Origin: Amoebophrya sp. A120
Lineage: Eukaryota; Protista; Dinoflagellata
NCBI GenBank assembly: GCA_905178155.1
Contig: CAJINV010000004.1
Location: forward strand, 4,807,996-4,871,995
Reading direction: 5' to 3'
DNA length: 64,000 bases
Part shown: positions 3,133-56,000 of the stretch, one piece after another
Layout: each line of letters starts with the position of its first letter
Position numbering within the stretch: position 1 is the first letter of the stretch
Made by a program: the position numbers and the translations under genes
The notes under the pieces: generated by a model
The model's database searches: none
What the model saw: the letters and a program-made list of their open reading frames with translations, nothing else
Told to the model about the DNA's origin: nothing

Positions 3133-5669
3133 ATGTCATTGTCACGACCCCATCACGGGCGTCCGAGCGGACGACGGCATGCAGCCTTGGGCAGTGGCGC
3201 GGCCACTGGGCTTCGTAGTTCTTGCTGCGGGACAAAATGTGGTAAAAACTCCCGGGGACCGCGCTTCCCCGTCCTTTTCCAGCTCGTCCGCGCAGTCGTG
3301 GCAAGGATCCATGACGCAGCCAGCAACAACCCAGGCAGCGTCGACGTGCTGAGATCCAGTTCATCAACTGCCAGCAGTGCCAGTGTCGAGTTTGAATTGG
3401 ACCCGGACGCAGACACTTCCGAATTTTTTCCCCATGTCGACGTTTTTTCGCCGGGGGCCGCGACAGCGCCACTAGAAGAAGCTACTTCAAGGAGCACAAG
3501 ACGTCGTGGCACTACTGCTCCCCCGGAGGTGGACCTAGACCACCCTGTCTTCCTTGACGATCAGCCTACCACGAGCAGCGCCACGTCGAGAGCTGCGCAA
3601 CCACAGCAGTTGAGATCGGAGCAACGAGGCGGGAGCAGCAGCAGCTCGTCTTCAAGGAAGACAGGACAGGGCACCGAGACGTCGGCCGACCTGCGAGACG
3701 AAAAAAGGGCTGGAAGCCGCCCGGTGCACCGTTCTGCACGTAGCCGGGAGACTAGTAGAAGAAGTTCCATGACGGGGTCAAGCGAAAATGAAGCTGGGTC
3801 TTCGTCGTCCTCTTCTTCGTCCCTCATAGAGCTGAACATTACCGGTCGAGAACACGACCATCCCAATCATCTTGTCCAACAAAGCAGACACCAGCAGCAA
3901 CATCCCGGTTTTTACCACCACGAGGACCTGTCTACCACTTCTGACGAAGTAGCCCGAGTCGCGAACAAGCTCGTGCGGAAAGAGCACGGGGGCGGCAGCA
4001 TGCTGGAGATTGATGGTCGTGCAACTTCTACTCTCGCAGCGATGAAATCCAAATCGTCATGGCAGTCCGGGAGTGCAGCTGCCGGCACCACGCCGAGCAG
4101 CAGCAGCAGCTCATCCTCTGCCCTTGGTGGAGGTACAGGTGGTCCCAGTCCCACCCAGCAGGCGTCTTTCTCGCAGGCGCAAGCCGAGTCTCAATCTTCA
4201 ACGACCACGAAGACGGGAAACACAACGGTCGAGGCCCCAGACATGATTCTCGCTGGAATGTCCTTTGTGGGGGTCGGCCTGGTCGCCGCGGTGTCCTACC
4301 AATTGGGATTTTCTAAAGGAAAACTTGCGGTAAACTTTCTTCACTTGTTGTTCAACTATTACTTTAGATTAAGATTTGCTGATCATGGATTGTACCTCTA
4401 CCTTTATTTCGTAGTCCCGCATCATGATACGCATCATGTTTTTCATCGTGTGAACAATTTTTTTTTTAATGACAGAGTGGCGGCGGCGAGAAGGGTGCTG
4501 CCGACCTTCTCGCCCTTCTTCAAGCCGGCGGCGTCGGAAATCTTGCCAGTATGAGCACCAGCTCCTTCCAAGCGGAGGCGCCAGCTGTTATGCATACTAC
4601 AAAAGTATGATCGTAGTGGTAGAAGTCGACGTACAACGAAAAACAACTCATTGCAGTGAAGCATTACAGATTTGGATTTGCATTTTTGCTAGATCAGCAT
4701 GTTGACAAAACCCTGCACTCTCGTACAAGCATACTTTTCCAAGGCATAGCTCCACCGTCGCCCCCGAGACCACCGAAAGCGAAGGCCCCCGCCGCGAAAG
4801 CGAAGTCCGGCAGCGGCGGGTCGCTCACGATCGCCACTGGGAGCACGGCCTTTGGGAAGTCTTCCACAGACGTGGCTTCCGTCGCGAAAGCTGCCCCGAA
4901 GGCCAAAGCCACTGCAAGTTCGCCGTCTCCCCGTGGTTCTTCCGGAGGTTCACCCAAGAAAGGTGGCCCCGACCGGTCCTCTGGGCAGACGCTGGTTATC
5001 GACGGTCTCGGGGTGAAGAACATCAACTTAAAGGCCAAGGCGGGCAAGCGGATCATCAAAAAAGACGGGGATCCGCCCAGCCCGAAGAAGCATCTGACGT
5101 GGCGAGACGAAACGAGTCCGAAAAACCGGGAGTCGGTGATATGAACTGCAAAAGCATCGTACTCGTATAAATGCATTACAAATTTTCTCAGCATGAAAAA
5201 TAAAATTTGTAATGCGGATTTACCTTAAGACAAAGATTTGTAATGCTAGACTTGCATTTATACGAGTACGATACTTTTGCACGGGATAGGTGAACTTTAT
5301 CAGCGACCGAGGGGAGGACCAGGTATCATCTGTAAAAGTGTCTGGGTCTGGAAGAATGCATGTTTGTCATGCTTGTTTGGCATAACTCTGAAATCTGTCA
5401 TGCACGTTACCCAAGAGCTCCACTTTTCTGTGATGCAGAAACGCAGTTTGTCATGCAGAATAGGCAACACCTAGAAGCTCAGAAACTTGTCATGCTGAGC
5501 CAGCATTTGTGGCTTCATCATGAGACGCCACCCAGCATCACAAGTTTCCAGACCCAGACATTTTTACAATCCATACCAGGCGGCGTTGATGCAGTTTGCA
5601 GCCCAGATGGCGGCCGTGGAAGCAGCGAAGGAAGATCGGGGGGTCGACGACGACGACGGGGAGTACTAG
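3133..5669 (+). CDS. Low-complexity Ser/Ala-rich single-pass membrane protein (hypothetical)
   Basis: ORF 3133 contains the hydrophobic segment MILAGMSFVGVGLVAAVSYQLG. A GT-AG intron 4330-4475 plus three TAT...ATA elements (4589, 5140, 5324) give one frame ending …DRGVDDDDGEY* at 5669. The start codon is uncertain. Confidence 0.65.
4589..4748. mobile_element. Introner-like element, degenerate family A (160 bp)
   Basis: TATG...CATA ends, a decayed AAAAGTATG/CATACTTTT TIR and an imperfect duplication GCTGT/GCTCC. Removal restores the frame (…APAVPSPPRPPK). Confidence 0.65.
5140..5288. mobile_element. Introner-like element, family A (149 bp), TSD GGTGA
   Basis: TAT-gaac-TGCAAAAGCATCGTACTCGTATAAATGCA … TGCATTTATACGAGTACGATACTTTTGCA-cggg-ATA, with GGTGA at 5135-5139 and 5289-5293. 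Confidence 0.92.
5324..5575. mobile_element. Introner-like element, family B1 (252 bp), TSD CCAGG
   Basis: TAT-catc-TGTAAAAGTGTCTGGGTCTGGAA … TTCCAGACCCAGACATTTTTACA-atcc-ATA, with CCAGG at 5319-5323 and 5576-5580. Nearly identical over its whole length to 29814-30066. Confidence 0.95.
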
Positions 5670-6704
5670 TAGGGCGGACGAGAAAAGCAAGGAAGTTGTA
5701 GCATGTCAGTAGAGCAGCTGGTGGAGGTCGTGTGCCAACAACAACGGCGACATCCAACAACAGGAGCTACAGCTATGAAATGGTTTGAAGTACGGAGCTG
5801 AAAATCAGAATGAGCCAGCAACAACGTCGGACCAAGACGAACGACGCACACGACGCACTGTTGAAAATTTTCCAAGAAACAAAAAGCTATCACTTGTACA
5901 ATATCACAGGGCAGAACCCAGCAGCACAGTTTCAACAGTGACAAAAAAAACAGACACGAGGGGACTGCAAACATGTACATGCATCGGAGTCGGTGCTGCT
6001 CTACTAGCTTTGCCATTTTCAAGTTAAGCGGAGTTCTGGCAACCTCAACTAGGTGAAGGCGCGCGCGCGTTGTCGCGTTACCGCGATGTCATCAATTTCT
6101 GGAGGTTCAGGCTCGCTCCTCCTCCTTCGCTCTTTCTTCTAAGTATTTTGTGCGAACACGTGGTCGTCGTGGTTTCTAGCACTATGCATGCCACAATGAG
6201 TGCAAGATCAAGCAGTGAGTCCGAGTCAAAGGTCAGTGTATTGAGTGCACCAGCAGAGGAGGTTACGTAGGCACTTTAGAGAGGGCTGTGGTTTGTTGCG
6301 GCACAAATGATGAATGAGAGACGCAAAGGGCAGCAAACGAAGGCGGCAAAGAGGTCTCACAAAACACGTACGGGGAACAAACTTTTTTCAGCATAATTGT
6401 TTTGGGCGCTTCCACTGGCTTTTGCGCTTGCGGCCACCGCTGCACCTACGCCTACCACGGGAGGTGGACGAAATAATAGCTACTAGCAAGTCTATAGATC
6501 ATATACACTTTTTTTCAGAGAGAGTATCTATTTTGTTCGTTTTTCGCCCTGTGAGCAATTGCAATCCACCCGCCTGCCTCGCTGCGACAAGGGAGGTGCT
6601 GGACGAGATTCTGATTCGCTTCGACACAACATCGACTACATTCATTTTTTTGTTTCATACTTTTTTCAAAAGCAGTATATTCTAGTTGTTAAACAGAGAA
6701 AGAC

Positions 6705-9183
6705 ATGCCAAACGCACTTCAAAGTCTCCGCAGCACCTTATCGGAACTCACCGCGCAGGCTCGGAGACGCTCCTCCTTGCTGAAATCGAAACAGAAACAG
6801 GACAAGGACAAACAAATAAACTCTACCACTACCTCACGACGCCCCAGTGCTGAATCCTTGGCTCAGGCCTCGTCGAATAAGGACCTGGATAAAAAGTCTG
6901 AGGTTGTTCCTTCCACCTTCCTCCAGGACTTCTACGAAACGGGCGACGCAGTTTTGGGCTCTGTGGACGAAGCAGCGTTGCAACAGAACATCATGGAGAC
7001 CATCACCTGCGGCAGCTGTTTCACGAAAAACCGGGTACCGGCCGGTACCGTGCACTTCAAATGCTTCCGCTGCGGGGCATTGGCGAAAGTGGAGCGCAAT
7101 CCGAAAATTGTGGCGGACCGCAACCAGGAAGCGGAGATGCGGAACCGGGAAGACGAGGAACTGATGCAGGCGATAATCGAGAGTGAAGTCTCACACGTAT
7201 TTACCACACAATAATAATTCTACATGCAAAAATCATAAAAATTTGCATTCGAATGATTTTTTTACCGCCTTGCTGCATAAACACATTCTTCACAGCCGTA
7301 CCCTTGATCTCGAAAAATCCCATTCGTCCCCGAAAGAAATGGAAGATGAAATAAAACGAGCAATCTATCACAACAGGGCCGCATGTTAGCCGGGAAAAAC
7401 TCCGTCTCTCCGGACCAAGTCGAACAGGACAGGATAAGAAGCACCAGCACAAGCTCTTCTGGCCTTTTAGACTCAACGCCCCCCGCCAGGCCGCAGCCCG
7501 TGTCTGCGTCTGCTCTGTCGCAGAAGTTGTTCCAGCCTGAGGAACGGGGTAAAACTACGGCGGCGACTACGGGTCCTCGTGGGCTCTTTGACGACAAGAA
7601 CATCTCTACCTCCCTGTTGACCCGCGACAAACAGGAGCAGCAGGAGCAGAGATCCACAGCCGGCGGTAGTAGTGGTGCCTACAACGCCCAGAATTATTCC
7701 CCCTCCCGACCTACCGCTGCATCGCAATCTCAGGCAAGGGAGGCCCGGGGCCTCTTTCCATCGGCCACCACCAGTGCAACTGCAGCGTCGGCAGCTGGAA
7801 CGACAAGGGGGACGCCAGACAGGCAGGATATGCATTGCAAAAGTATCGTACTAGTATAAATTGCATCACAAAAAATTTTGGCAAGAAGAAAAGAGGAATT
7901 TGTAATGCTGTCTCACCTTAGGAAGGAGATTTGTCGTGCATATTTGCAATTAGTACGACTACGATACTTTTGCACAGGATACCGGATACGACACACCAAA
8001 GTAGTTCTGCAACGAGAACGAACGCGAACACAAAGCACATTATCCTGTACAAAAGTATCGCGCGACCCGTTCTCATCGTAATTACCGCATGACAAATGCC
8101 ATTCCTGAGCAAAAGCTGCACGACACGCTCCGTTACCGTTTTCCGTGTTGCAGCAAAAATGAAAGTCTGTCAACATGTAGCACCTAGTTGCAGATAGTAA
8201 CAGGGCGAAATGTTGCGTAGCCCGTGGGAGTATAAGAATTAAGAACATAAGCCTAGCCGCACTGGCGGCAAGCCTCACGTGCACCATCAGAAGTGCAGTA
8301 TTGGCCGTTCTTTGCGGTGTCTCACCATCAGAAGTGCGAGCTGCGAGGAGCGGGGCGCACCGCCTAAAGTTCTAAAAAGTTCCCAACCGCCCGATAGATA
8401 GATAGATAGATAGATAGATTCACGATACTTTTGCAATGCATACGGATGAGCCCGTTACTTCGACCGGAGAATTTGGCCGACGACCGTGTGTACATCGAGG
8501 CTCTGGAACAGAAAATTAAAACATTGGAAGTGAACTCGAAATTTTTGGAAAAAGAACTCGCGCAGCAGGACAAGAATACCGAGGACGTATTTTTTTTTTT
8601 CGGAGCATGTGACTTCGATGTTGTTGTGCAGCATAATTTTTTATGAAAATGCATGCTACGACATCCAGTGACATTGTGAGTCGTGCTATGAGCTTGTGTG
8701 TGAAAAAGAGCGCGCTTATTCCATGTCAAACTTCACCACAGGCCGTCGCCGAACGCGACGTGGCTACGAAAGAGCTGAGCGCGGCCGTTGCGGAGATTGA
8801 GAAGCTGCTGAAGCAGAACCACGAGAAAGACATTGTGATCAAAAAACTGACGAAGCAATTGCAGCAAAACGAAACCGTTTCCGACGCGGAGATCTTGGTC
8901 ACGCAATTGCAGGATCGAGTGGAGGAACTGGAGGCGCAGTATCCAGGAAAATAAAACACCCCTCCCCATCCAATTTGTCATGCAAAACATGCATATTATG
9001 CATGTTTTGCATGACAAATTGCATGTTTTGCATGACAAATCCATTTTTTGCATGACAAACACTGCAGTTTATGCCATAAACTGCAGTGTTTGTCATGCAA
9101 AAAATGGATGGGGGTGGCGTAAGTGTTTTTTCCTGGATACGCAGCTGCAGAGCTTGGGCATCGACCCCGTGGACAAGGACTGA
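6705..9183 (+). CDS. Protein with CxxC..CxxC zinc ribbon, UIM-like motif and C-terminal coiled coil
   Basis: Contains CGSCFTKNRVPAGTVHFKCFRC and EDEELMQAIIES. The frame is continuous via GT-AG introns 7197-7376 and 8587-8741 and elements at 7829, 8041 and 8940, ending …EAQLQSLGIDPVDKD*. Confidence 0.7.
7829..7981. mobile_element. Introner-like element, family A (153 bp)
   Basis: TAT-gcat-TGCAAAAGTATCGTA … TACGATACTTTTGCA-cagg-ATA, with duplication CAGGA/CCGGA (1 mismatch). Removal gives DRQDTTHQSS in frame. Confidence 0.9.
8041..8442. mobile_element. Introner-like element, family A ends with unrelated interior (402 bp)
   Basis: TAT-cctg-TACAAAAGTATCG … CGATACTTTTGCA-atgc-ATA, with duplication CACAT/CGGAT. 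The interior has a (GATA)n tract at ~8393-8419 and a CACCATCAGAAGTGC direct repeat. Removal gives KHMSPLLRPE. Confidence 0.8.
8940..9139. mobile_element. Introner-like element, family C (200 bp), TSD CGCAG, two internal perfect hairpins
   Basis: TATCCAGGAAAA … TTTTCCTGGATA, with CGCAG at 8935-8939 and 9140-9144. Removal gives EAQLQSLG. Confidence 0.92.
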
Positions 9184-9837
9184 CGAGGAAGTTGAACACA
9201 GACGATGTAAGGAAGCGACACATCCTGGGCGTACTAGTCCCTGAAACCTAACGATGTATCCAGCTACTTCTGTAGAATTTCACCTCCCAGTAACTAAAAC
9301 TACCAACCGCGGACCGAAAGCCAATAACTTTTTATCGATTCCATATATAATGTTGAAAAAGTTTCTTTTGAAAATCTTGCCATGATATTTGTCGTGGTCT
9401 ACTTGTAACCATCACCCGACGCTATTCTTGTCGCAGATTTCCGAGTCTTCACATAACAGCTGGATTGTGCCATGTTGAAGAGCTGATCAATTTATCCTCA
9501 TTCCCTTTCTGAACGAGGTTGGGCGTTGAGTTGTACTTATTCGCCTGCTCTTGTGGCAAGAACACCTCTTGTTCTTCACTGCGCGGTACTCAGTCGCGGC
9601 AAAAGACAGCAACATCAAAGAGCGAGCGATAGAGAAAAGGGCACGCAGCAGGCAGATGAAATGGGCTCGTCCCTGCTCCCTTGCAGTTCTTGTATCGGAG
9701 CAAAAAGGCCTAGACCTCTTAGCGCTAATATCGCTTGCTCTTCTAGTGACGAATCTGACGAGTAGAGGATTGAGTTCTACTGTTGCGCTGCCCAGCGAGG
9801 ACTCGTGGTCCCCTACCACCGCCACCGTTCGCAACGA

Positions 9838-12800
9838 TGAGCGAGGACGCCGCAGTACCGCCGCCAGCAGCAGCTGCGGCAATCGCGGATGCGGATATGA
9901 CTCCCCCACAACAAACCGAAGACGAGCCGACCAAACCAAAGCAGTCGATCGACGAACAGATAGCCGCGCAGGTGCCCTTATCCTTTGCGAAAGTATTCTT
10001 TGTACAACTCGAAAACGGACGTCTATACCCTATCTGACATGACAAACTCGTCCGCTTTTGATCTACTTACTTGGTAAAAATTGTGATGCGAAGATTTCTA
10101 ATAGTAGTATGAACAAGATCATACAACTTTTGCAATGCATAGCGCCTGCGGCCGGTGACCGAGATCGCGGCACTGCTCAACATTCCGCACGAGTTATGGA
10201 AGCGTCAGGATTGAAATCGTCAAAGTTGAAATCTTTTCTCATGCATAAACTCCAAGGCATCAAGTGCCTCTCTTGCAGGGACGGCAAGCGAGGCCCACTG
10301 TCAGCCTGTTTGGGGTCTGCGGTAGAGCTGCTACAGAAGCATCACACAAGGCGCCTTCTGTCCCGCAACAGCATGACAAACTGGATTTAGACGGTCCCGA
10401 AATTTGTCATGCACCGCTTGAAAAATGGGGCGGGGGTCCAACTGGTACCGATTTTATGCTTCACAAGTTTTTCAACTTTGTCGATTTCAAACCTGGCACT
10501 CCCATACGAGTTTGTCGATCCGTATGGAAAGTTCAAGGCGAAAATCGATGCGCAGAGGTACTACGCGAGTATTTGGGAAAAGGGGTCTCTGTCCTCCGCT
10601 TCGTCTACTTCTTCCCGATCATCTATCCACAGTAACTAAACTTCCCGCACACGTACAAATGCCGTGTCTGCATGACAAAACTTGGCCCCGATCTTAGTTT
10701 AGCATGACAAGCATCACGACACGCCAAAGAAATTGAAATCTGTGATGCATTTTGTACATGTGCGCGAAATTTGTATTGCATATCATCTTCACGCCTCGTA
10801 CTCGTTACTGGTATGACCCCCACGAAAGCCGGAGAGGGAAAAACCACGACCACGGTGGGGCTGACCGACGCCTTGCGGCTCCTCGGGAAAAAAAGCATCG
10901 CGTGTCTGCGGGAGCCGAGTCTAGGGCCGGTGTTTGGGATGAAAGGAGGGGCTGCGGGGGGAGGTTGGTCGCAGGTATGAAATTACTTATATTTTCTTGT
11001 GGTTGTGCTTGTGTCATCATGAGGCACGACAAAGGAAAACTTCTGTAGTAGTACTTTCCATGCAACACAAGTCTCGCTCCTGCTGTCCTTCACCTACTTC
11101 AACTTCCGCATCATAACATTCAAAACCACTCCCAGACAACATAATTTCAATGCACAACGGCCAGGTAGTCCCGATGGATGAAATAAACCTCCACTTCACG
11201 GGCGATTTCCACGCGATCACGAGCGCGCTATGAGGGTGCGCAACTTCTACTCCCACTCCCTTTCCTTTGCAGGGTACAGACGACGTCCTCGAAAACGATG
11301 TATTACTAGCGTCTGTGTGACAAATCTTCCACGCAAGACGAGTAGTGCTAGAAGATGAGGGCGTGTGTGATTGAGCTGTGCTTTTGCCTGACAAAAGAGA
11401 GGGGGCAGGGGTACGACGAGTTCTTCACTGTTATATGCACACAACCTGCTGTCTGCCATGGTGGACAACCACATCTACTGGAAAAAGCAGCCCGAGATCG
11501 ACGTGCGCCGCATTATATCCCCTGCAAAAGTATCGTACTCGTACTAATCGCATCCATGCATTACATTTTTCTTTCTCAAGTTAAATCCGCATTACTTTTT
11601 TCTTTCTCATGCTGAGGAAATTTGTCATGCGATTTATTTTTATAGGATACTTCTAGTACGATGCTTTTGCATTTCATACATCACTTGGAAGCGCGTGCTC
11701 GACATGAACGACCGGGCACTGCGAAAATTGACGGTTGCACTCGGCGGTCCGGGGAACGGCTACCCGCGCGAGGACGGCTTCGACATCACCGTGGCGTCCG
11801 AGGTCATGGCGATTCTTTGCCTCGCGACCGATTTCCCCGATTTGGAGCGACGGCTGGGCAACATTGTCGTCGGCCACACGCGGAAACGAGACATGGTAAC
11901 CGCCCGGGACTTGAAGGCCCACGGTGCGATGGCGGCCTTGCTAAAGGACGCGTTTAAGCCGAATTTGGTCCAAACCCTCGGCGGCTCCCTATGGCGTTCT
12001 CAAACGTTACATTCTCAACTCGAACTCGAATTTGTATTGCATGAATTTGCAAGGACTTGTATTGCGAGGACAGCAAGAGTGAAGGTGGCAAGCTTGCTGC
12101 TTTTGCATCACAGATTTGGCACAGATTCAGATGTTGGCGGGCCCTTCGGAGATTTGTCATGCGACGTAGCTTGATCATCTGGCGGTTTATGGTAGTTTCG
12201 CATGACAAATCCAGGCAACAGGAGTTGAGAGTGGACCAGTTGAGAGCCCCATACCCCCCTGCGTTGATCCACGGGGGCCCCTTCGCGAACATCGCGCACG
12301 GCTGCAACTCCGTGCAGGCGACCAAACTCGGGTTGGAGCTTGGTGACATCGTCGTGACGGAAGCCGGATTTGGTGCCGACCTCGGGGCGGAAAAGTTCAT
12401 TGACATCAAGTGCCGAGCCGCGGGGTTGATCCCCGACGTTGTGGCGATGGTGGTCTCCTGCCGGGCACTGAAAATGCACGGCGGGGTCGGTGAGAAGGAG
12501 CTGAAAACAGAAAACTTAGCGGCAATCAAAACTGGTTTGGCCAACGTGGAGCGGCACTGCGAAAACCTGGCGAAGTTCGGGCTGCCGATCGTCATTTCGG
12601 TGAACAAGTTCCCAACGGTATCCTGAGCAAAAACGTGGCCGTGGTCCCCGGTCCCCATGTCATTAGTCATATTAGTCTTGATGCACGACAGGATTTTATT
12701 TGCATTAGCTGCTCTTGCTCACGTGTTTCTTATCGATAAAGCTGAAGCTCTGCATGAGAGCCTTGTTAGGCTCTTTTCTGCACTTGGGACGACGTGACTA

Positions 12801-13562
12801 GTTTTTGCACTGGATAAACGGATACGGACGCGGAGTTGAGCCTCGCGTGTGAAACCTGTGCGACTTTTCCGAACGTTCAAGCGGCCTTGGTGGGGGACCA
12901 CTGGGCGCACGGCGGGGCGGGCATTCAGGGCGTGGCGGAAGCGGTTCTCAAGTGCGTGGAGGATAGTGGAACAGGCACAACAACTACGTTGAAAACCCTG
13001 TACCCATCGGACCTGCCGCTGGCACAGAAAATCGAGGCCATCGCGCAGAATATTTATCGGGCAAAGGGTGTCATTTTCGCCGATGAAGCCAGGACCGCGC
13101 TGAAGGGAATGCAGGAGAAGGGGTGAGCGCAGCCATATTTAGAGTAGATGGGTGTTCATCTGTTCATTTCATCGAATACACAAGCTGCATGTTGGACAAT
13201 GATGAATCCTGATGTTGATTAGCTTGATCACGATCAGTAACAGTTGTATCTGCTTTCGCTCCTGCGAACTACACTTCATCGCACCGTTCTACCTTTTATA
13301 CGAGTTCACGCACATCATCAACCTCAGATTTGGCCATCTCCCCGTCTGTATCGCGAAAACCCAGTACAGCTTCAGTGACGACGCGAAGAAGGTAAATGCG
13401 GCAATAGACCACGAGCTGCACGTCTCCGAGGTCAGGCTGAACGCCGGGGCAGAGTTTGTCGTGGCGATCTGCGGCGCCATTATGACGATGCCCGGCTTAC
13501 CGGAAACACCCGCGGCGGAAAACATTGGGCTAGTGGATGGGCAAGTGCACGGGCTGTTCTAG
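9838..13562 (+). CDS. fhs: Formate--tetrahydrofolate ligase (FTHFS), 10 exons
   Basis: Diagnostic motifs [103 protein letters not shown] and IMTMPGLP. Interrupted by 7 TAT...ATA elements and 2 GT-AG introns (10975-11164, 13123-13327). Confidence 0.97.
9979..10141. mobile_element. Introner-like element, degenerate family A (163 bp)
   Basis: TAT-cctt-TGCGAAAGT … ACTTTTGCA-atgc-ATA, with decayed duplication GCCCT/GCGCC. Removal of the element plus 5 nt gives [14 protein letters not shown], which matches the FTHFS N-terminus. Confidence 0.8.
10195..10506. mobile_element. Introner-like element, family D (312 bp), TSD CGAGT
   Basis: TATGGAAGCGTCAGGATTGAAATCGTCAAAGTTGAAA … TTTCAACTTTGTCGATTTCAAACCTGGCACTCCCATA, with CGAGT at 10190-10194 and 10507-10511. 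Removal gives [16 protein letters not shown]. Confidence 0.92.
10624..10782. mobile_element. Introner-like element, family E (159 bp), TSD TCATC
   Basis: TATCCACAG … TTTGTATTGCATA ends shared with 42288-42462, with TCATC at 10619-10623 and 10783-10787. The frame is restored into [11 protein letters not shown]. Confidence 0.88.
11229..11435. mobile_element. Eroded introner-like element / non-canonical intron (207 bp)
   Basis: TATG…ATA ends with duplication CGCGC/TGCAC. The conserved FTHFS motif HAITSA|HNLL forces these boundaries and no GT-AG register exists. The TIR is barely recognisable. Confidence 0.75.
11516..11678. mobile_element. Introner-like element, family A (163 bp)
   Basis: TAT-cccc-TGCAAAAGTATCGTACT … AGTACGATGCTTTTGCA-tttc-ATA, with duplication CATTA/CATCA. 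Removal gives [14 protein letters not shown]. Confidence 0.92.
11990..12253. mobile_element. Introner-like element, family H (264 bp)
   Basis: TATGGCGTTCTCAA … TTGAGAGCCCCATA, with duplication CTCCC/CCCCC. Removal gives [15 protein letters not shown]. The left end matches the reverse complement of the right end of 44295-44543. Confidence 0.9.
12619..12816. mobile_element. Introner-like element (198 bp), TSD AACGG
   Basis: TAT-cctg-AGCAAAAAC … GTTTTTGCA-ctgg-ATA, with AACGG at 12614-12618 and 12817-12821. Removal gives NKFPTDTDAE. Confidence 0.9.
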
Positions 13563-14226: not shown

Positions 14227-15961
14227 ATGCTTCACCACAATGCCAAGCCCTCTTCTCTCTCCCCGCCGCGGCGCAACGTCATCCGTTGCCGGTTGTGTGG
14301 CGGTGAGTTTCTCCGGGACGGATTTCCTTTTCACGCGAAGAAATGCGCGAAGAAGTTCTTTGTCGACCTGGATCCGGGCGATCCAACAGCCTGGAAAAAG
14401 TGCGCCGTTCTAGTAAACAACAGCAGCACTGAGACTTTGCCGATCCATCGGCATAGAGGAAGAAATTCTTCTAATGGAGAAGCAGCTGCGTTTTCGCCAA
14501 GTGCGGGTACTAGAGATGGTTGTAGCTTCTCGCCGGAGGTGGAAGAGCATGTTGGTGAAGCAGGGGGTGATGGTGCGCAGCTGCCAGACCTCCTCCAGCA
14601 CCGCCCAGATCTTCATGCCGGCGGTGGACTACAAATTGACTGTCAGGGAGCTGCAACAGCAACTGGTGAATCAAATACCGGTATTGTATCATACGAAAAA
14701 AGTGTTTCACTGTAAGGATTTTGCAAGTTGTGCATCACAAGTTCGTTCTACATCACAGGGAAAATTTGCCATGCGAGATTCCTAAGGGAAAACACAGCTA
14801 AAAATCCACTGTCTTGCATGTGTAGCAAGAGAAACATTTCTCGGATACATTTTCATCTGCATTACAAGTTTACAGTGAAACAGTTTTTTCTTGCGATATA
14901 TTGAACCTCTGGAGCAGTGCAGCATTTGCGGTCGGTCCTTCTTCGCGTCACGATTGAAAAAACACGAGGATATTTGTCGCAGGAATCAAGAAAGGCGGCT
15001 GCATCACCAGAACGAGTCATTGCCTCTGGAATCTTCAGGCAGACGGACGGGAGCAGGACTGCACTTCAATAAAAGTAGAAATTCTGCTGGTACTGCACGA
15101 CCTTCAGCGCAACAGATAAAACATTCGCAAAGTGCGGGAAGCCTGCGGGAAAATGTTGACTCACGGCCACCCGGTGGTGGTGCTCCTGGAAAGGATATAC
15201 ATCAACCGCGCCCAAATAGAGACCAGGACCGCACGCACACGACCCATACTTCGAACAACCAGGACCATCGGGAAGATGCTGGGGGCGGCGCTGGGGTACT
15301 AGAACAAGCCCAACTTCTGTCACTACAAGAAGAACGGAACACGCACCAGGCCGAACCACGGCAAAAAGACCACTTGGAACAACGCCAGCACTTGTCTGCT
15401 TCGAGCTCGTCCACCAGGTCTCTGCATCTGGACTACTACAACCAACTCGCGGAACCACATCAAGTACAACTGCCTACTGCCCGTAGAACCGCTTTCAGCA
15501 CCACCAAATTTGGCGCGTTCAGTCCAACTGCGAAGACAAGTACTAAAAGCCTCAATTTCGTCACACGGAGCAGCGCATCCCTGCACGCCAAAGTGGACTT
15601 CGATGGACGAGCGAGACCAAGACGCAGTATTTTGTCCTCAGGCACCAAGGCGGCGCAGCAGCACGCGGCGGAATGGGGGAGAAACGCAGCGGCAATGCAG
15701 GAGGGACTGGGGGGGCGAGGTGGAGGAAATTATGGGTCCTCGTCCATGCTCGGGGGCCCAGGCGGAGGAGGAGGTACTATGAAGACGGAGAAAAGTAGCT
15801 GGTGGAGCGGGAATCCTGTACAGACGTGTTACAAGACCAATTCCTTTCTCACTCAAGGTGCTAGCTTTTTCGCGGAATCCGCTGCAACGGCGCGTTTGAA
15901 CCAGACGAGTCGTGGCACGATAGCACTGCCGGCACGAGTGCCAAATATGAACAAGTCGTGA
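14227..15961 (+). CDS. Zinc finger C2HC-type (zf-C2HC_2 / ZC2HC1-like) protein
   Basis: Two C2HC fingers (CRLCGGEF…FHAKKC and CSICGRSF…KHEDIC), joined in frame by removing element 14687-14898. Confidence 0.8.
14687..14898. mobile_element. Introner-like element, family F (212 bp), TSD TATTG
   Basis: TATCATACGAAAAAAGTGTTTCACTGTAA … TTACAGTGAAACAGTTTTTTCTTGCGATA, with TATTG at 14682-14686 and 14899-14903. Confidence 0.92.
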
Positions 15962-43900: not shown

Positions 43901-46434
43901 AGAGCGTGGCAAATCCGGAAAGATTTGCTGTACCTCGAAACGTCGTTTTACGATGTGAAAATCAATTCCGACTACCAGGCGCAGGGAGCTAGTGTGGAGT
44001 TCTGGGTGCAGAACCCGGAAGAGGTTGTTTCTAGTGGCGCGTCGGCCTTGCCCACCTCCTGGCGCCTGCACACGGACCTGAAACTGCTCGGCTGGCGGCC
44101 GAAATCTTTCGCACCGCCGATCGAGTCGAAATTCGACATCGACACCAGCTCCGGAGACGTGAATGACCAGGCGTTTCTGGATTCGATCGCGACTACGTTT
44201 GTCCTCGGCGCGGCGAAGGCGATGGAGGGCAACCCGGGGCTGGATCCCAGTCAGGGCATCGACATCCAGGAGATCAACATCATGGACCCGGTGATATGGA
44301 GTTCTCAATTGTTAGATTCTCAATTATTAACTGAATTTGTAATGCAAGACTGGCAAAAGTGAAAGAAAGGAGGAAGATTGCGCCTTTTGCATTACAAGTT
44401 TGGCGCAGATTTAGGTGCGGCTTAGCCTTTCGCAAATTTTTCATGCGGAACAGCCCGATCGTGAGCATGATGATGGTGTTTTTGCATAACAAACTCATGT
44501 TGTAACAGTTGTAGTTGAGAATGTAACGTTTGAGAACCCCACAGGTGACCGGCGCAAAATCCCCCGTCGTCGAGGAAGTGCCAGAAGGGTGCTTCTTACA
44601 ACAGGATGAAAACAGCACCAACACGAGCTTCTCCTTGTTATCTACTCTGTCGCGGCCGTCAAGCTGGGTTGAAGATGGTGCGACAGAGGACAAGAAAAAG
44701 ATGATGATGCAGCTCAGCGGTCTGAAAAGCCTGCCGTTGTATCTCATCACGGATTCCGGCGATCATGGGGACGGCGTCATGACAGGAACTCCGCCAAGCC
44801 GCCTGCAGTCATCATCGCTGATCCACCACCAGCAGGTGGAGCAGAGGCAGCTGCTGCGGAAAGCAGGCAGAGTGAATGTTCATGATGCGGCCACAGCAAC
44901 AACATCTTCGCTCAAGAAAAACAGTGCGACCATGGGTGTAACCTTCGTGGTGCCGAACTCCCCCGCGTTTGCGGCCATGAACGCGAGTCAGCAGGCCGCA
45001 GTGAACGCCCAGGCGGCAAGTCCGAACACCACCGGGAGCGTCCTATCCAGCTTCCAGGCCGTTGCGGCGGCAAACCCGACTATGGGCGTATCCGTGTCGC
45101 CCCCTACGCCGCCCTCCAACCCACCGACCACCACCACGACCACAACGACCGTAACAACAACATCTGGGCCGACGCCGGGTCCAGCACCACCAGCGGGAGG
45201 TGGTGCGCCAGCCCCCAGTCCAGCAGCTGCGCCACAACCCGCACACACCCCAACGCCAACTTTGCCCCACGGGTGCGCTTGCTCGGCGGAGGACCTCGAG
45301 CCGCGGATCATATGCGGGACGGATGGCGCCCAGTACGGGAGCGTCTGCGAGGCGCTCTGCGCGAACACGGAGATCCACAATTACGGAGTGTGTACGGGCC
45401 CCGGCACGCACCGAGCGGTGCAGAGCCAGCACACGGGCCCGACCACCTACGGAAAGGCGGCGGGGGTGGAACTAAGCGTGGTGGGGAAGATCGGTATCTG
45501 TGCGGGTGCGTTGCTGCTGCTCATCGTGGCTTACTTCTATGTTGCCTACCCGGAGACCGGCGGCTGGATCGCTTTTTTGCGCTCCACGACCCCGCAGCCT
45601 GTCACGAGGGAGCCGGGAAGCGGATCGGAGGGAGGAGGAGGGGATGCAGGTATGGAATGGAATTTTTGCAGGCTTTTTTAAAGTGATTTTCATGACAGCA
45701 CGATGCGATCATCATCATCATGTAGTTTAAGTTTCTGCCTGGTGGTGACAACTACTACACTCAGTGGGCAGTACTACTAGTACGTCGCCCTCGACGTCCC
45801 ATGATCGTCGTCACTACGATCATCGTGCAGCAGCAGTAGCTCTGTGGGTGTGCAGACAACTACACCAAACTAAAATTTCAAAGTCATGTCGTGATTTGAA
45901 CTTACTGTACCACCAGGTGCCGCAGACCGAGACGGAGATGGAGAATCGAAGCAGAACCCCCAGGTTGATGTGGCCGTCGAGGAAGAGGATGCAGTACAAC
46001 AGGAGGAACGAGCGGCGACTGTAGACGAGGCCGCAGGAGCAGAGGAAGAACAGCAGCCGCCACCGCAAACTGCCGCCCCGCCGGCCGCACCCCCAGCACC
46101 ACTCCCCGCCGAGCAATCAACCGGACCACAAGGCTCCACAAGTTTCGCCGCAGCAGGAACAACTTCAGGAGCCGGCGCAGCAGCAGCAGCAGCAGTTCCT
46201 GGAATGGGCTCCGTCAGCTTCGGCGGGGGAGGACCACAAGCAGGGTCTACTGCAGGAGCTCCGCAAGGATCCGTCAGCTTCGCAAACGCAACATCGGGGG
46301 GCAATGCCAATGCGGCCGCAGCGGCTGCAGCACAGGGGTCGATCAGCTTTGCGAAAGCGCCAGGGGGCGATGGCGTGCCTCAGGGGTCTATCAGCTTTGC
46401 CGGGGCCGGTTCGCAAGCGCCCCCTGGGTCATAG
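40972..46434 (+). CDS. Large secreted type-I membrane protein with Pro/Thr stalk and Kazal-type domain
   Basis: Signal-like TVIPTIIFVFLSSCTTLTSA, Kazal-like CACSAEDLEPRIICGTDGAQYGSVCEALC…HNYGVC, and TM segment IGICAGALLLLIVAYFYV. Five ORFs join in one frame via elements 41445, 42288, 44295 and GT-AG intron 45650-45916. Confidence 0.8.
41445..41596. mobile_element. Introner-like element, family A (152 bp), TSD GTAGC
   Basis: TAT-gcat-TGCAGAAGTATCG … CGATACTTCTGCA-atcc-ATA, with GTAGC at 41440-41444 and 41597-41601. Confidence 0.93.
42288..42462. mobile_element. Introner-like element, family E (175 bp), TSD AACCG
   Basis: TATCCACAGG … GTTTGTATTGCATA, with AACCG at 42283-42287 and 42463-42467. 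Removal gives DKTAAGDKNVKL. Confidence 0.9.
44295..44543. mobile_element. Introner-like element, family H (249 bp), TSD GGTGA, right end ACA
   Basis: TATGGAGTTCTCAA … TTGAGAACCCCACA, with GGTGA at 44290-44294 and 44544-44548. Removal gives DPVTGAK. Confidence 0.9.
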
Positions 46435-47211: not shown

Positions 47212-48939
47212 ATGGCAGTCGATGCCTTGATGACCCTGCTCGTGAATACCACGGTCAATGTCACAGGCAATGTCACAGGCAATGTCACAGGCAATTTCAC
47301 GACCAATTCTGCCACGGTCACTGCCGCGTCAGCAACCGGAGACGCAGCCAGTGGAAGCAGCGGCGCCGGCATCAACGCAACTAGTACAGCCGACGCGGTT
47401 AATATATCCTGTGCAAAAGTATCGTACTCGTATAAATCCAACCTTTTTTTTTGGCGCGAAATAGTATAGAAGTTGGTGGGAAGTTGTTGAGAAGTTGGCG
47501 CGGAAGTTGGTGAGAAGTGGGCGCAGAAGTTGGTGAGAAGTGGGCGCAGAAGTTGGCGCGGAAGCCGGTAACAAGTGGCGGGCCGTGTTGGCGCCGTCAT
47601 CGGCTCAGCCGAGTGGCGTGGCACGTCACTCCGCCGCGGCAAGTTCTATCGCCAGCCTTCGCTGCTTGCGGCTGCAGCTGCAAGGGCTTGAGAGAATTGC
47701 GCTGCAGATAAAATATAGAAAGATGACCACTGTCATTCTTTCCATTTATCTGCAGCGCTGCTCGATCAGTTCGCGCGAGGGCCCCACGCGCGAAAACAAA
47801 GATGAGAGGCGGCAAAAGTTGCGTCTGTGATGGCTGCACGCACAGACGCCTTTCTGGTGATTGCGCACGCGCGACGAAGTGGCGCTGCACGGCGCAGGGG
47901 CGCTGATGTTTTTCATTTATGACAAATTGCGGAGCTACGTATAATTAATTAAATTCAATTGATTCCGCAATTAATGATAAATGGGCTGGCGTTTCTTTTG
48001 CCAAAAAATGCATTTTTGCGTGTAGCCTACAGCATTTAAAATGTTTTTTCTTCGCAACTTCTCAACAGCTTCTCAACAACTTCTACATAACTTCTGCACC
48101 AACATCGCGACGAACATCCGACCAACTTGGCGAATTTTTCGAGGCTTCATGCAATTAATTTCCAAGCGAAGGCTTCATGCAAATTAACTGCGTGGCAACT
48201 TCAAAAGATCGCCTGCAGAACCCCGGAAGCTGTCAGCAAGATGAGGCTTTGGAGCTCCCACAGCGCCTGCATTTGCGCGGAGGCGCGACCGAAGTATACC
48301 CAGCCAAACTGCTTCGTGACTGCGCACGCGGCCACGGGAAACTCGTGAAAGAAACACCAGGCGAAGCCTGGTAGAGAAGTTGGCGCGCCTACAGTTCAAA
48401 TCCGCACCAAGCCCCCGAACAAACCCACCCGCAGACTCCCGCCTACTTCTCAACAGCTGGGAAGTTGGTGAAAAGGTTAGGGAGAAGCTGGTGAGAAGTT
48501 GGTGGGAAGTTGTCTAGAAGTACGTGAGAAGTTGTAGAAAGGTTTCATGCATGAAAAGGTCGGATTTATACGAGTACGATACTTTTGCACAGGATATAAT
48601 AACGCTACCAGCAATGCCACCGTTCACGAAACTGTCATGGCCGCAAACCCGGCAAACATCTTTCTCGAGGTACTCGTGGCGCTAGGAACCCTTGCCGTGA
48701 TCATGTTGCTGGGGCTGTTCGTGTCGATACCGGCAACGCCGCCCGGCTGGGACGAGTATGTACTGTCAAAAACGACGGGGAAACACGGAAAGAAAGCAAC
48801 AAAGAAACCTCCTGGAGGTGGCGAACAAGCAGCTGCTGATGCAGCACCAGCACCGGAAGCGGCCGGCGCCGCGGAGCACGAACCTGGAGCAGCAGCTGCA
48901 CCAGAAGGAGGAGGAGAGGAAGCGGCGGCGGCGGGTTGA
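47212..48939 (+). CDS. Small N-glycosylation-site-rich single-pass membrane protein (hypothetical)
   Basis: MAVDALMTLLVNTTVNVTGNVTGNVTGNFT…AVN|NATSNAT…VLVALGTLAVIMLLGLFVSI… joined in frame across element 47405-48596. Confidence 0.75.
47405..48596. mobile_element. Large family A element (1192 bp), TSD TAATA
   Basis: Perfect long TIR TATCCTGTGCAAAAGTATCGTACTCGTATAAATCC … GGATTTATACGAGTACGATACTTTTGCACAGGATA, with TAATA at 47400-47404 and 48597-48601. The interior has AGAAGTTGG arrays. Confidence 0.95.
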
Positions 48940-51900
48940 GGCAGCTGTAGTTCCTGGCTCTAACCTTGTTAAAGTAGTGTGAAGAACACAATGGCTATGG
49001 CGTCGAACGCTATCTAGACACCGCCAACATTAAAATTTGAGTTTCGGATTTTTGTTTCGAAGTGTTGCAGGAGGCGGATGAACGATAGAAAACATTTTCG
49101 AAGAAAACGCAAAAGAAAAATCGATCTCCAGCTGGGTTTTTGTGGTTCTAATACGTGGACCTGTGACGAAGTGCGTCGCAGATGAATGTAGTTTTCAAAA
49201 AATTCGTGAAATAAAAATCGTGTTGTAGTGGCTATTGCTAAATGAGCATTACTTACTTCAGATGAAGAGTTGCGTCGTCGGATTGAACTCGTCCTCGTGT
49301 CTTTGAGTTGCTTCTAGATCCTCTAGAGGTGTGAGATAGTAATGAAAGGCTTTCTGATTCTGTTGAGCGAAGGCTTCCGAGAGCGGAAAAGGAGCGGAAA
49401 CTGAGAACGACAGCAAGCAGAGGCGACATCGCGCGTCGGCGGGAACTACTACTGCCAATGATGAAGTCGCTCGATTCGTGGTGGTCAAAAGCATCGGGAG
49501 TTTTTTCCAGTGGTGCGATCGCGATGAGCATCATTCAAAAATATGCGTGCATTTACTACGTTACATCAGCCAAGAATTGATCGTGTCAACACCATTCTTG
49601 TGTTTCAAGTTGAAAAAAATTGCCACAACTGTAGAACAAAGTTCTTGGTCCTCGTCTTCGTTCTCGTAGCGACTTTGAAGTTGTCCTCGGTAGTAACTAC
49701 ATTTTTTCAAATATAGTAATTTAGTGCACAAATAGAAGTAGTACTATCTACAAAGGCCGGGCCGCTTGTGCAACTTGGTGGTTATCTATCATTGCCAAAC
49801 GGGAACAAGTAGTAGAGCATCGACAAATATGGGTGAAGGCAAGGCCGCGATGGTAAACACCCGGGATTGCCCGGAGCTATTCGGCAAGAAGCAGATCGAC
49901 GCCAAAAAAGCCGGCATTTGTGACGACGATGAAGACGAGTGCAACACGCTATACGATTGTGGGTAATATACTAACTGACTCACTTTTTTTTTGCAAGCAT
50001 TTGACTGTCATGCCTTTATTTTACGTCGTCGGAAAGAGCTGCAAATTTGACATCGTAAGAAAAAATGAAACTATCAGGAACAAGAAGTACACCCTTTCCC
50101 AGCTCTGCGAGATGTTTCCTTTCTGCACCAAGCAGCAGATTGAGTCGTTGATGGCACAGTACGCGGGCGAGGAAGGGATGATAAGGCTCACGAAATACCA
50201 CCAAGGGCAGGAGGCAGCGTATTGATCATCAAGATCAACCTGAACCTGATTTGGTCGTGCATAATTTTGAACAGCGTCCTCATCTACAAACAAAAGCACC
50301 ATGTGAAATGATCAAGCAAATGTCCAATCTTCACAACAAAATCAAAACAACAGAGCGAAACAGCGCGAAGCGTTGGAAGAGGAGAGGACGCGGGAGCCGA
50401 AAAAACAGTTCGAGGGCGTGGGGGAGCGGGCGTTTCCAATATGAGAGCGCACAACGAGGTTTTTTCCATATTTGGAAGACAGCAACAGCAAGAGCTCTTG
50501 GCAAAGCCAAAGATGATTGAGCGGGTTTTGCATCACAATAAATTCACGACGCAGGATGAGGATTATTGTGCTTGTGTTAGTTTGCGCTGTCCTTGGGATC
50601 TTTTATGCACAATAGCAAAGACAAAACCAAAAGCAAGCATATGAATGGTAATAGATTTGGGGTTGCCATGCGAAATGAGTGGAGCAAGTATCAGTTGTGC
50701 ACTGTCATATTGAAAATTGAGCTTGGAAAAGGAATGGGAACTGGTCGACGAGCTGGACGACTGGACGAAAATTGACCCGATGGAGAAGAAGAAAACGTAT
50801 TGAGAATTTTTGAAGATTTACATGTACGAGATTGATTTGCTCAGCATGAATGGAATTTGTCATGGTGACTAGCCTAAGTAACCGTAAAGACGGTTCCTCC
50901 AAATCGAAATTTGTCGATGCGAAAAACTAAAACCTACAGGTGGGCGGAAAGGATAAAGGACCAAGGAAACTGAGAGAAGACGAGAAAAAATGCTTGCAAC
51001 AGCAGCTACTATGATTGAGAAGGAGCAGCTTCAATATACGAAGAAGAAGAACTTCATCTACACATTCATCTCGACGTCGATGTTGGTGCTACCGCAACTA
51101 CAACATCTTCGCCATCCACATTCAAGACCTTCCACCTCTTATCATCACAGTCGGCACGAAGAGTTTCATGGAAAACAACCGAACTTTTTCTTGTACTGCA
51201 ACATCCTTTCTGCTGTCCTTTTTCACCTTCCCCCTGTCGACGGCGTGAAGATACTCCCCAACTACACGCAAGCAGTCGCCATCCAACATCCTCTTGTTCT
51301 TCAGCGGAAACATGTCATCGGCTCCAAACAAACCTACCTGCATTCTTTCTACCCTCACTACATCCTGTAGAACTACTTTGTTATCCGGTTCCGGGGGCAG
51401 CAGCACCGTCGTGCGCGGGTGCATCGATAGCCGCTCGCTGTGAAGATGAAAGCCCGTCGTGGTACTGCACGACTACCACCAGTGGACCGCAGACATGCAC
51501 ATCACGCCAACCTTCTGCAGAAGTGCTACTTCGTGCCCGGCGCTGAGACGTGGTGGAATGCAGTGAAGCGGCAGCACGATCTCAGCCGCCTTCTCTGAAG
51601 TTGCTGCAGAAGGAGTAGACGAGGAGCAAGGAGGCCTAAGGCAGGAAGAACGATTCATCTACAGTCAGCGACAGCGTGCTGTTATTCCATTTCTAGTCCT
51701 CTGTCTGAGACGAAAATTAGCATCAGCAGGATCAGTAGCTGCGCGTTCCTGACTCATCTCCTCTTCGCGAGGGCGGTTCTCTAGCAAGTGCGCCACCAGG
51801 CGTTCAGCATTGCTGCATCGGGACCTCCTTGTACTGTGCTGTAGCCGTACTTCTCGCTGCAGTAGTTTCACCCAAGACATCGCTGACCTCTCGTCTCTGC

Positions 51901-53082: not shown

Positions 53083-56000
53083 ATGCCGGGCCAACATCAG
53101 CAGCCCCCCTCACAAAATAACCCGCCCAGCACGACCAAGATGAAGCTTGATAACAAGCACCATTCGTCGAACAGCGGTTTGATCCGCGATATGCAGCGTA
53201 TTCTGGTGGAAACAAAACGAAAATACGACGAAGTGCTGGTAGACGGCGAACGGAAGGAACAGGAGCTGACCCGGATCCGCGACTCGATTCGCCTGTGGGA
53301 AGCCGCAAAAGAGGAAGAGGAGCGCACCCAACGGTCACTGGGGCTACTACAACCGACTTCTTCGAGCGGGGGTGGAAATAATGCTCCCGCGGCCGGACCC
53401 GGAGCAGGGTCAATTGCAGGAACTACGGGTGGACTAAACAAAGCTTCGTCTGCGTCTTCGAGCTCATACGCAGGTGGTTTTAACAGAAACGGCACCACCG
53501 GAGCTGCAGCGGGAACGAGCGGGGCGGGAGGGAGCAGCTCATCCGACCAGATTCATTCCTCCACTGGCACTTCTGGTGGAGACCAGCAGATCATGCCTCA
53601 TGATCCGAATTATGCCACGAATGCTGCAAATGCGGCAGGAGGTAGTGCAACTATGAGTAGCTCATCCGACCAAGATCTCCTAAGCCAAGACCCGAACGCG
53701 CTACAGATTGAGGACCTCGAGGTGAGCAGGAAAGTCTACAAACACATCCTCGAGCGGTCACGCACCGAACTCGGCGTGCTGCGCCAGCGGCTGTTGAAGT
53801 TAGAAGGATTGTTGGACAAGCGCACCCTGGAAGAGGAGGGCAAGCTCGCACTGTCCCGGAAACTGACGCAGGCGAAACAGCACAAGCAGCACGAGCTGGA
53901 TAAGCTTGAGGTGAGTATATCTGAGCACAACACCTGAAAAAATGTTATCATATATCATTCGTATATTGCAATTGTTGAACTTGATTTGCCTTCCCATGTT
54001 GATCTATCAGGCCGACATCCGTAACGCATCGGAGCGGGAGCAGGAGACGCTCCTGGAATACGAAGGCAAGCTGGAAAGCAAGCGCGAGGCGGTGAAGCGA
54101 CGGACGGATTTTGAGAAGTGGCGGCAGGAGATCGCGGTAGAAGCCGCAACGGAGGCGTTGTTTGCGAGTGCGAGCAGACTGAGGAAAATGTGGGCCATGG
54201 AAAAGTTGACAGGTAGTCCTTTCTTTTGTGCTGCGCGGTATTCTAAGATCCTCATGCTGCAGACGTATTCAAGAACACAGAAGTTGAAGTTGAAGCTGAA
54301 GCTCCTTGTTTTCACGCCAGCATTCGACTTTTGGCTCTTTTATAGTAGGATTTGGATTTCTGTATGACCATCGATATTCACCTCAGTAAAAGGCGTCTCC
54401 GTAACCTCCACAACAAATTGCAGGTAACTGTCTCCAGCGCATTATGTACGAGCAGGTGGAACGCAGTCAAGTGACCGAGGACGGGTTCTACCAAGTGCAA
54501 AAATGTCTGGGTCTGGAAGAATGCAACTTGTGATGCTGCATTTGGATTCCAAAAAAAATCTGTATTGCATGAGTGCCAAGGGGAATGCAATTTTTGCTAC
54601 GCTGAGAACAAGGCATTTGTCATGCGGAAATGGATTATGCATCAAGAAGCCCTCAAAAAATCTGTATTGCTAGGGTATGCATCACAGACATCATGGCTCA
54701 TGCAAAACGTGCATGACAAGTGTCAGAATCTTCCAGACCCAAACACTTTTGCATTTGATAGGTTCCAGCGCATCCGGGAGGTCACCGGCTTAACCGAGGT
54801 TTCCGAAATCGTGCAGAAATTTCTCAATCGCGATGTGGAGCACGAAAGATTGGAAAAGAACGTCGTGGAAAACGAGAAACGGAAGAAGGACTTGGAGCAG
54901 GAAATCACCAATTCAGCCAATTTGCCGACGGCTGGAGCAGGAGGAGGTGCAGCAGTAGCTTCATCATCTATTGGAGAGCATGAACAAGCAGAAGCTCCCT
55001 CGGGCGTGCGCGAAGATCCTGCCGCTGGTGTCATTGCCGGTGTTGAGGACGCATCTTCTTCCACCGCGCCACGAATGTTAACTGACGGCGGGGCTTCCTC
55101 CTCTACCGACGCAGAAGGAGACGGTGCAAATACGGACCTCCTGCGGGAGGACGCGGCTGGAGCAATATTAAAACAAGACCTCGTGACATCAAGTCCTCAG
55201 CAGCAGCAAATAACCACTCTGTCCTCGACCTACCAGCAGGTGGATAAGCTCGAGAACGAGCTGACCAGGGTCAAGCGCGAGTTTTCGGAGTCTCGGGAGC
55301 TGTCGGAGGCGAAAATCATCGAAATGGACAAGTTACGGAAGTGGATGGTGCGTCTGGGAAAAAGTTTATCCTTTTTCGACCAGTACTACACCGAGTTTCT
55401 CAGCTCCACCAGCGATTTGCAAATGCAGCAACAGGGCGGGGGTGGGGATGGAGGGGGGAATAAGCCTGGGGCTGGCGGGGTCTCCTCACCGAATCTGATC
55501 GTGCAACAGGTAAATGTTGATGGGTTTTTGCTCATCATTTTTCGGAAAAAAAAATTCTGGAGATGATGAGATGATGCGCAAGTACAGTTTTTTGGGTTTT
55601 GAATAAAAAGCAAACGCATTCACATTCCCTTGTAGCCAATAGACCAAAGAGAAAGATGCAAAGATCACACTTCTCGTTTTACTGCACAGGAAACCATGCA
55701 GAGCTTTTTTCGCCGGTTACACACCCAGACCGTGCCCCAGTTGATTCAGGAAGTGCGGAACCAGCTTGGAACCGGGCGCCGCGGAGTTTTCTCCAAAGAA
55801 TACCACGAGCAAGCCAGACTGCTCAACGACAAGGAATTCCTGCGGAACAACTGTACTTCAAGAACGTATGGCAATGGCTGTTTCTCAAAAGCAACTGCAT
55901 GATGTCATACGATGATAAAAATTGAAAAAACTGATACTTGCACGACCCTCGCAGCTGTTCCTCACTACAGCAGAAATACAGAATTGACACAAAAAACTAT

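Follow-up and report, generated by a model that had tools for sequence, protein, structure and literature searches.

The window analysed here is a stretch of 64,000 nucleotides from the dinoflagellate Amoebophrya sp. A120 (contig CAJINV010000004.1, positions 4,807,996 to 4,871,995, forward strand), and it holds 24 elements with terminal inverted repeats (TIRs), each flanked by a direct 5-bp duplication. These elements are almost certainly A120 introners that are spliced out of transcripts, and the cuts very probably fall in one fixed register, beginning 1 nt ahead of the element and ending 4 nt beyond it. The system itself is already known, as the published transposon-derived introners of this strain. 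The 1/4 register, the match of the element ends to the host donor and a shared internal 9-mer are additions that were not found in the literature searched (for Farhat 2021, its text).

Terminal-repeat elements and their removal from transcripts

Window scans together with reading of the sequence placed the 24 elements between 4589 and 54760. They span 145-1,192 bp, with 23 of them in the range 145-402 bp, and the duplication is perfect in 16 cases and imperfect in eight. The original prediction had counted 23 insertions, 16 with perfect and seven with imperfect duplications; the perfect count stands, while the total rises by one further imperfect case. Both ends read TAT(C/G), and the only exceptions are the three named beforehand, TAC at 54489, ACA at 44543 and TATA at 11435. 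Strict matches, defined as a TATS..SATA pair (S, C or G) with a perfect 5-bp repeat and a TIR of at least 9/15, number 13 in the window, compared to a mean of 0.37 and a maximum of 2 in 30 order-3 Markov simulations. The 3' ends at 4748 (element 4589) and 50709 (element 50440) were set by sequence reading, and the former is also confirmed by RNA. Families A, B1, B2 and C are linked by BLAST, and families D, E, F and H were grouped on the similarity of their ends.

Transcript contigs from runs X1, X3 and X4 skip the element plus exactly 5 nt at all 14 elements within positions 1-15600, and at every one of these sites the main contig is the skipped one. Five GT-AG introns are also absent from the same contigs, which thus represent spliced transcripts. 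In the DNA-like run X5, one contig is continuous and unskipped over 2900-5168, and none of three joined forms is present. At 12 of the 14 sites GT-AG is unreadable at every allowed register. Splicing also acts on both orientations, since element 11516 runs counter to 5140 and 7829. Insertion length is not a multiple of three in 18/24 cases, and joining the exons of the FTHFS gene at the RNA joints yields a 609-aa frame that is open only after element removal. The transcripts therefore agree with the prediction that the removed length equals the element plus 5 nt, and with GT-AG-independent splicing under one rule across families and, from the minus-strand match of 11516, in both orientations. 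The prediction extended this to every insertion; RNA supports it at 14, and for the 10 elements beyond 29 kb the check was for a frame that stays open through the junction, which is a weak test. It weighs against splicing that X1, X3 and X4 come from one study with two samples, that the data are contigs and that the run kind, RNA, is a guess.

Run X3 also contains a contig of depth 3.6 that keeps 4573-4743 (the 4589 element), compared to 37.1 for the spliced form, which fits a precursor or some retention.

To sample the elements outside the window, we fetched 151 loci by a family-A pattern from one public assembly (148 records, about 468 kb unique). The 25 longest matches to the window lie in elements only, at 78-88% identity. 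Among 122 short paired family-A copies the flanking repeat is a perfect 5-bp repeat in 89, 4 bp in two and 6-9 bp in none. A scan made without a terminal requirement returned 244 elements, 222 of which start with TAT; 74 of these belong to the selected family and the remaining 148 to other clusters. A homology scan blind to the first four bases gave 404 copies with 4 or more matches out of 5. They form 28 clusters, 16 of them with at least two members, and TAT..ATA termini occur in 377. Across the 404 copies, T, A and T make up.99,.99 and.98 of positions 1-3, and A makes up.83-.94 of positions 11-14. Frame-preserving length is not favoured, with 130/404 copies being multiples of three.

The cut register

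We define k, the register, as the number of bases of the upstream duplication that are retained in the exon. The imperfect duplications restrict the values that k can take (Table 1), and k=4 is the sole value common to the seven that were tested by RNA. The joint at element 4589 has zero slide in X1, X3 and X4, and this site alone fixes the register. Because only k=4 is shared, the intron reads N-TATS...SATA-NNNN, where the hyphens mark the element ends. By hand arithmetic, if cuts were spread at random over six registers, p would be about 0.0014 for k=4 being admitted at every site, and below 0.01 for any common register. The mRNA retains the first four bases of the upstream copy and the last base of the downstream one, and the coding sequence is thus restored at any target. 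The boundaries had been predicted to lie at the element termini, which is not borne out; the cuts lie within the duplications, 1 nt (5') and 4 nt (3') outside the element. About four sites had been thought readable as GT-AG. Sliding permits it at 5/24, of which three (5140, 44295 and 54489) reach GT-AG at k=1; within registers 2-5 it occurs only at 5324 and 39960, both at k=4, so that 2/24 remain at the RNA-defined register.

That the register is not universal, being family-dependent or giving way to GT-AG at the three sites where sliding to register 1 permits it, is improbable. Just seven non-slidable sites were tested, five of them with family-A-type ends, and the upper bound on the register depends on two sites (4589 and 9979). 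Farhat 2021 (PMC7789003) also puts the repeats 1-5 nt from the splice sites, and per-family automated calls differ in Dataset S2 of Gozashti 2025 (PMC12130899; 38/58 A120 rows). Slidable junctions would, however, produce the published variability, and register 4 is open to families A, H and E alike. Nor do the fetched loci show an excess of targets that would yield GT-AG at register 1 (4 of 164 oriented copies compared to 2.4 expected, control 4).

Much of the system was described by Farhat 2021, who reported that A120 introner repeats start with TAT followed by about seven looser bases and A-runs, found no GT-AG and proposed unusual splicing. That paper gives direct repeats of 3-5 nt, with a 5-bp example in the legend of Fig. 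S19, and a cut site that is variable or unknown; here the repeat is 5 bp, directly flanks the element and is cut in one register. Since TAT-starting repeats, a 5-bp example and unusual splicing were all in that work, the system counts as known, and the window elements likewise combine a TAT-start TIR followed by an A-run, a direct repeat at the boundary, removal without GT-AG and membership of repeat families. Gozashti 2025 lists '5-bp TSD, TA/TA termini' (TSD, target-site duplication) for A120 family 38 only among 38/58 rows of Dataset S2. This family has five members of about 810 bp with integrase-like homology, and other A120 families carry differing automated TSD calls. The original prediction was thus right to be cautious about novelty. 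The register is not given in those 38 rows, and the splice-site counts of the dataset were not used as support, their high AG/AC counts suggesting sliding to familiar dinucleotides. A fixed register is unstated in the literature searched (PMC7789003, PMC12130899, PMC9860276, PMC11282704, PMC12005148, PMC11453091, PMC13326754), on which the figures and 20 dataset rows could bear.

Table 1. Terminal-repeat elements of the window. Duplications are given as upstream/downstream copy, or once where perfect; skips are in nt and registers are the values of k that the site admits.
Element	Position	Strand	Duplication	Evidence	Register	Remarks
family-A-type ends, 160 bp	4589..4748	+	GCTGT/GCTCC	RNA joint 4587->4753	4	intron 4588-4752
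family A	5140..5288	+	GGTGA, perfect	RNA skip 154 = 149+5
family B1	5324..5575	+	CCAGG, perfect	RNA skip 257 = 252+5		GT-AG at fixed register
family A	7829..7981	+	CAGGA/CCGGA	RNA skip 158	2-7
family-A-type ends, 402 bp	8041..8442	+	CACAT/CGGAT	RNA skip 407	3-5
outside named families	8940..9139	+	CGCAG, perfect	RNA skip 205
family-A-type ends	9979..10141	+	GCCCT/GCGCC	RNA skip 168	3-4	in FTHFS gene
family D	10195..10506	+	CGAGT, perfect	RNA skip 317		in FTHFS gene
family F	10624..10782	+	TCATC, perfect	RNA skip 164		in FTHFS gene; degenerate TIR
family H	11229..11435	+	CGCGC/TGCAC	RNA skip 212	4-5	in FTHFS gene; 3' end TATA
family A	11516..11678	+	CATTA/CATCA	RNA skip 168	4-5	in FTHFS gene; reverse orientation relative to 5140 and 7829 (minus-strand match)
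family E	11990..12253	+	CTCCC/CCCCC	RNA skip 269	2-5	in FTHFS gene
outside named families	12619..12816	+	AACGG, perfect	RNA skip 203		in FTHFS gene
family C	14687..14898	+	TATTG, perfect	RNA skip 217
family B1	29814..30066	+	CCGTT, perfect	sequence		in one copy of triplicated segment
family B2	33085..33347	+	CGGGC, perfect	sequence
family C	35941..36140	+	GGGAC, perfect	sequence		in papain-family gene; Pfam PF00112 both sides
family D	39960..40270	+	AGAGG, perfect	sequence		in OCD/mu-crystallin gene; PF02423 upstream; GT-AG at fixed register
family A	41445..41596	+	GTAGC, perfect	sequence
family F	42288..42462	+	AACCG, perfect	sequence
family E	44295..44543	+	GGTGA, perfect	sequence		3' end ACA
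near-perfect family-A TIR, 1,192 bp	47405..48596	+	TAATA, perfect	sequence
family H	50440..50709	+	TCCAA/TTGAA	sequence reading; open frame
family B2	54489..54760	+	GGTTC, perfect	sequence		5' end TAC

Routes of removal

As the agent of removal, we lean towards a modified U2-type spliceosome that no longer reads the +1 base and AG. The terminal TAT of the element would supply intron positions +2 to +4 (UAU), equal to those of GTAT, the commonest canonical donor of the host, and neither the +1 base nor the final AG would any longer be read. The 3' arm would pair with the donor region, stand in for the undetected U1 small nuclear RNA (snRNA) and set the acceptor by distance. GTAT starts three of five RNA-verified and eight of 15 located canonical introns of the window (17 candidates, two not located), and in the fetched loci it starts 24/118 motif-free introns called by a noisy predictor, compared to a background of 3.8%. 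The original prediction had pointed to non-standard excision machinery shared across families; the match of UAU to the host donor suggests a modified spliceosome. In Table S4 of Farhat 2021, T stands at +2 in 9/9 of the commonest A120 non-canonical classes, and in strain A25, whose repeats start with TTA, 9/9 classes begin with TT. The same paper found nearly all spliceosomal proteins and did not find U1 snRNA or snRNP27; in yeasts, SNRNP27K loss has been linked to +4U donors (PMC10581693). An Rfam search of the window gave no matches.

The original prediction also held that pairing of the TIRs defines the element ends, and this stands in part. Across the 404 copies, pairing is possible in 97-99% at positions 1-3, thus for TAT with ATA, in 41-60% at positions 4-7 and in 87-99% from position 8 onward. 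At position 4, each end carries C or G whether or not the two ends pair (184 of 378 S/S copies do), which suggests that the sequence itself is read, and three RNA-confirmed elements (8041, 10624 and 11516) have a predicted terminal pairing below 0.2.

Several results weigh against the modified spliceosome. There is no G at +1 and no AG, and a branch-point signal was not found. Standard second-step chemistry uses a contact between G+1 and G-1. The paired stem would hide +2 to +4 from U6 and would need unwinding, and +5 is not limited to C/G in canonical GTAT donors (4/8). At the RNA-defined register a GT/GC donor with an AG acceptor occurs at 2/24 window sites and, at chance level, in 5 of the 164 oriented copies (3.8 expected), so that GT-AG-forming targets are not enriched. 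The same copies show 57 N-T/NN boundary types where 64 could occur. TAT is conserved in them without 5'/3' asymmetry, under an orientation model that is weak, choosing the wrong strand at 5/24 window sites, all by small margins; transposition alone thus explains its conservation. The intron predictor exactly recovered only 2/5 RNA-verified introns, and aligner placement may account for part of the Table S4 classes. One candidate branch point, the first A of ATA at -7, was dropped, a matching signal being absent from predicted canonical acceptors.

More tentatively, each element could be its own splice signal at any target, with the 3' arm replacing U1, only UAU at +2 to +4 being read and the cuts measured from the stem, 1 + 4 nt making up the 5-bp duplication.

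It is possible, though we hold it rather unlikely, that removal is instead non-spliceosomal and guided by structure, as proposed for Euglena. In the window elements a nuclease and a ligase would then gauge distances of 1 nt and 4 nt from the foot of the terminal stem, and the intron would be released as linear or circular RNA. Nonconventional introns of Euglena (PMC12501133) likewise lack GT-AG and carry a paired motif near both ends at fixed unequal spacers, there 3 nt and 5-6 nt, and slidable junctions masked that rule, as here, until non-slidable ones were used. Their signature is N3-CDG ... CH'G-N5-6 followed by R at the junction. The window elements instead have spacers of 1 and 4, which consist of the target duplication, use TAT/ATA as the motif and require no purine past the junction. 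The Euglena signature was therefore not found, and fixed spacers around a pairable terminal motif were (seven non-slidable sites; 97-99% pairable). The freedom of base identity at +1, -2 and -1, evident in the 57 boundary types, fits such a route, as do the pairing from position 8 onward, the predicted TAT/ATA pairing of at least 0.5 at positions 1 or 3 in 19/23 short window elements and the failure of Farhat 2021 to detect U1 snRNA; the route matches the 1/4 geometry as well as the spliceosomal reading does. Against it, positions +2 to +4 are identical to the host canonical donor, and A25 shares +2U/+3A despite a different repeat end (PMC7789003). Moreover, the three spliced elements named above lack predicted terminal pairing, folding of the 4589 element is no stronger than that of shuffled sequences (z 0.06), and no such enzyme has been identified.

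Two further explanations are very improbable. The skips could be template switches of reverse transcriptase at hairpins with direct repeats, a known artefact setting (PMC8240250), and the data are all complementary DNA contigs. However, the 4589 joint shares zero bases and ignores available GCT homology, the skipped form is the main one at 14/14 sites, and neither the 18 insertions out of frame nor an FTHFS frame open only after removal fits an artefact. Equally remote is excision of the elements from DNA in transcribing nuclei, as for the internal eliminated sequences of ciliates, which the TA-containing ends and the precise removal resemble. The X5 contig lacks skips and joined forms, although contigs drop rare variants, and the low-depth X3 contig retains 4573-4743 as a precursor would.

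Removal by a U2 spliceosome that has adapted has been reported for Fritillaria borealis (PMC11282704, PMC13326754), in which non-canonical introns derived from miniature inverted-repeat transposable elements (MITEs), with TIRs and TSDs, account for mass intron gain. Those introns keep a preference for AG-AC and AG-AT, whereas only one of the four terminal bases is fixed here.

Insertion, host genes and significance

The elements are non-autonomous, MITE-like TIR elements in coding exons: they are short and non-coding, have TIRs and TSDs, and have empty related sites. In a triplicated segment, the site filled by 29814..30066 corresponds to empty paralogous sites at 27101 and 32712 that each hold a single CCGTT, which is direct evidence that insertion duplicates 5 bp. 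This segment, at about 26100-34600, consists of three diverged tandem copies of roughly 2.7-3 kb, two of which carry a single family-B element, not at the same site. In the paralogue at 27440-27465, an additional TAT lies within the target of element 33085; it may be an excision footprint or may have arisen by chance.

A 9-mer, YTGT[ACG]WTGC, occurs 70 times in the 6,331 bp of window elements and nine times in the other 57,669 bp, a comparison that is circular because the motif was picked by eye there. In the fetched loci its density is 14.6/kb inside elements compared to 0.86/kb outside, and it is present in 16/16 multi-copy clusters. A role as an RNA signal or branch point was rejected, since the 9-mer is alike on both strands (269 and 235); its most plausible role is that of a DNA-level site for a shared mobiliser. 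All families might be moved by a single trans-acting transposase, perhaps an integrase-like one, that works via the TATS ends and the 9-mer. It weighs against this that no transposase or autonomous element was found among seven long candidates, the longest open reading frames (ORFs) of four of which had no Pfam match (about 0.47 Mb of related DNA), and that the Pfam-searched element ORFs contained no Gypsy-integrase-like transposase. A literature search for a known superfamily with TAT..ATA termini was without result. Ginger2/TDD elements (PMC2836005) likewise have TIRs, and TDD-4 and TDD-5 give 5-bp duplications, but Ginger termini are TGTNR; identity with Ginger1 or Ginger2 was rejected on this ground, TGT being found at one end only in 5/404 copies and TAT..ATA in 377.

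The longest internal ORF of element 47405..48596 (115 aa) has no Pfam match and the 9-mer is absent inside. Its ends are near-perfect over 50 bp, the interior holds short tandem and inverted repeats (AGAAGTTGG-like), and that interior is unmatched among the fetched loci. Two other long copies, L026:6184-6998 (815 bp) and L007:505-1608 (1,104 bp), have TAT ends and 5-bp duplications; the former is near the integrase-like family 38 (PMC12130899) in size, and its longest ORF has no Pfam match.

Pfam confirmed the FTHFS, papain and OCD hosts that had been predicted. The public A120 FTHFS model, P0001, matches the window in nine pieces at 97.5-100%, with one exon identical over 99 aa. Within 9656-13563 its first ~217 aa lie in a non-FTHFS frame, the Pfam match beginning only at residue 218, and the model and the transcript contigs disagree on how the intron near 10975 is joined. 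In the RNA-defined frame, Pfam FTHFS positions 54-114 fall at 10783-10971.

Other features of the window are a second repeated sequence with high contig depth and a GATA microsatellite at 8230-8430, inside the 402-bp element; X8 and X9 gave 41 and 4 raw reads on the window, those of X8 matching 8230-8274 at 90-95%. A perfect 38-bp inverted repeat with a 1-nt loop (17656-17732) lies in coding sequence at the break between the long ORFs 16779-17696 and 17700-21452 and is not a TAT-type element. A 49-bp tandem repeat (63816-64000) ends the window; the roughly 4 kb in front of it are AT-rich and seem to lack genes.

Roughly 60-65% of Amoebophrya introns lack GT-AG, and the question of how they are removed has been open since 2021, partly as their junctions were thought variable. 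One register makes tens of thousands of ambiguous introns a defined substrate, N-UAUS ... SAUA-NNNN. It predicts every junction from DNA alone and can repair gene models such as the public FTHFS model, with its out-of-frame N-terminal third. It also tells which bases to mutate and which intermediates to seek, so that the splicing question becomes directly testable, and it places a second lineage beside Euglena in which the distance from a paired motif determines the splice sites. If each element were indeed its own splice signal, exonic insertions in either orientation would be silent, the transposons would be harmless by design and the intron invasion of this genome would be explained.

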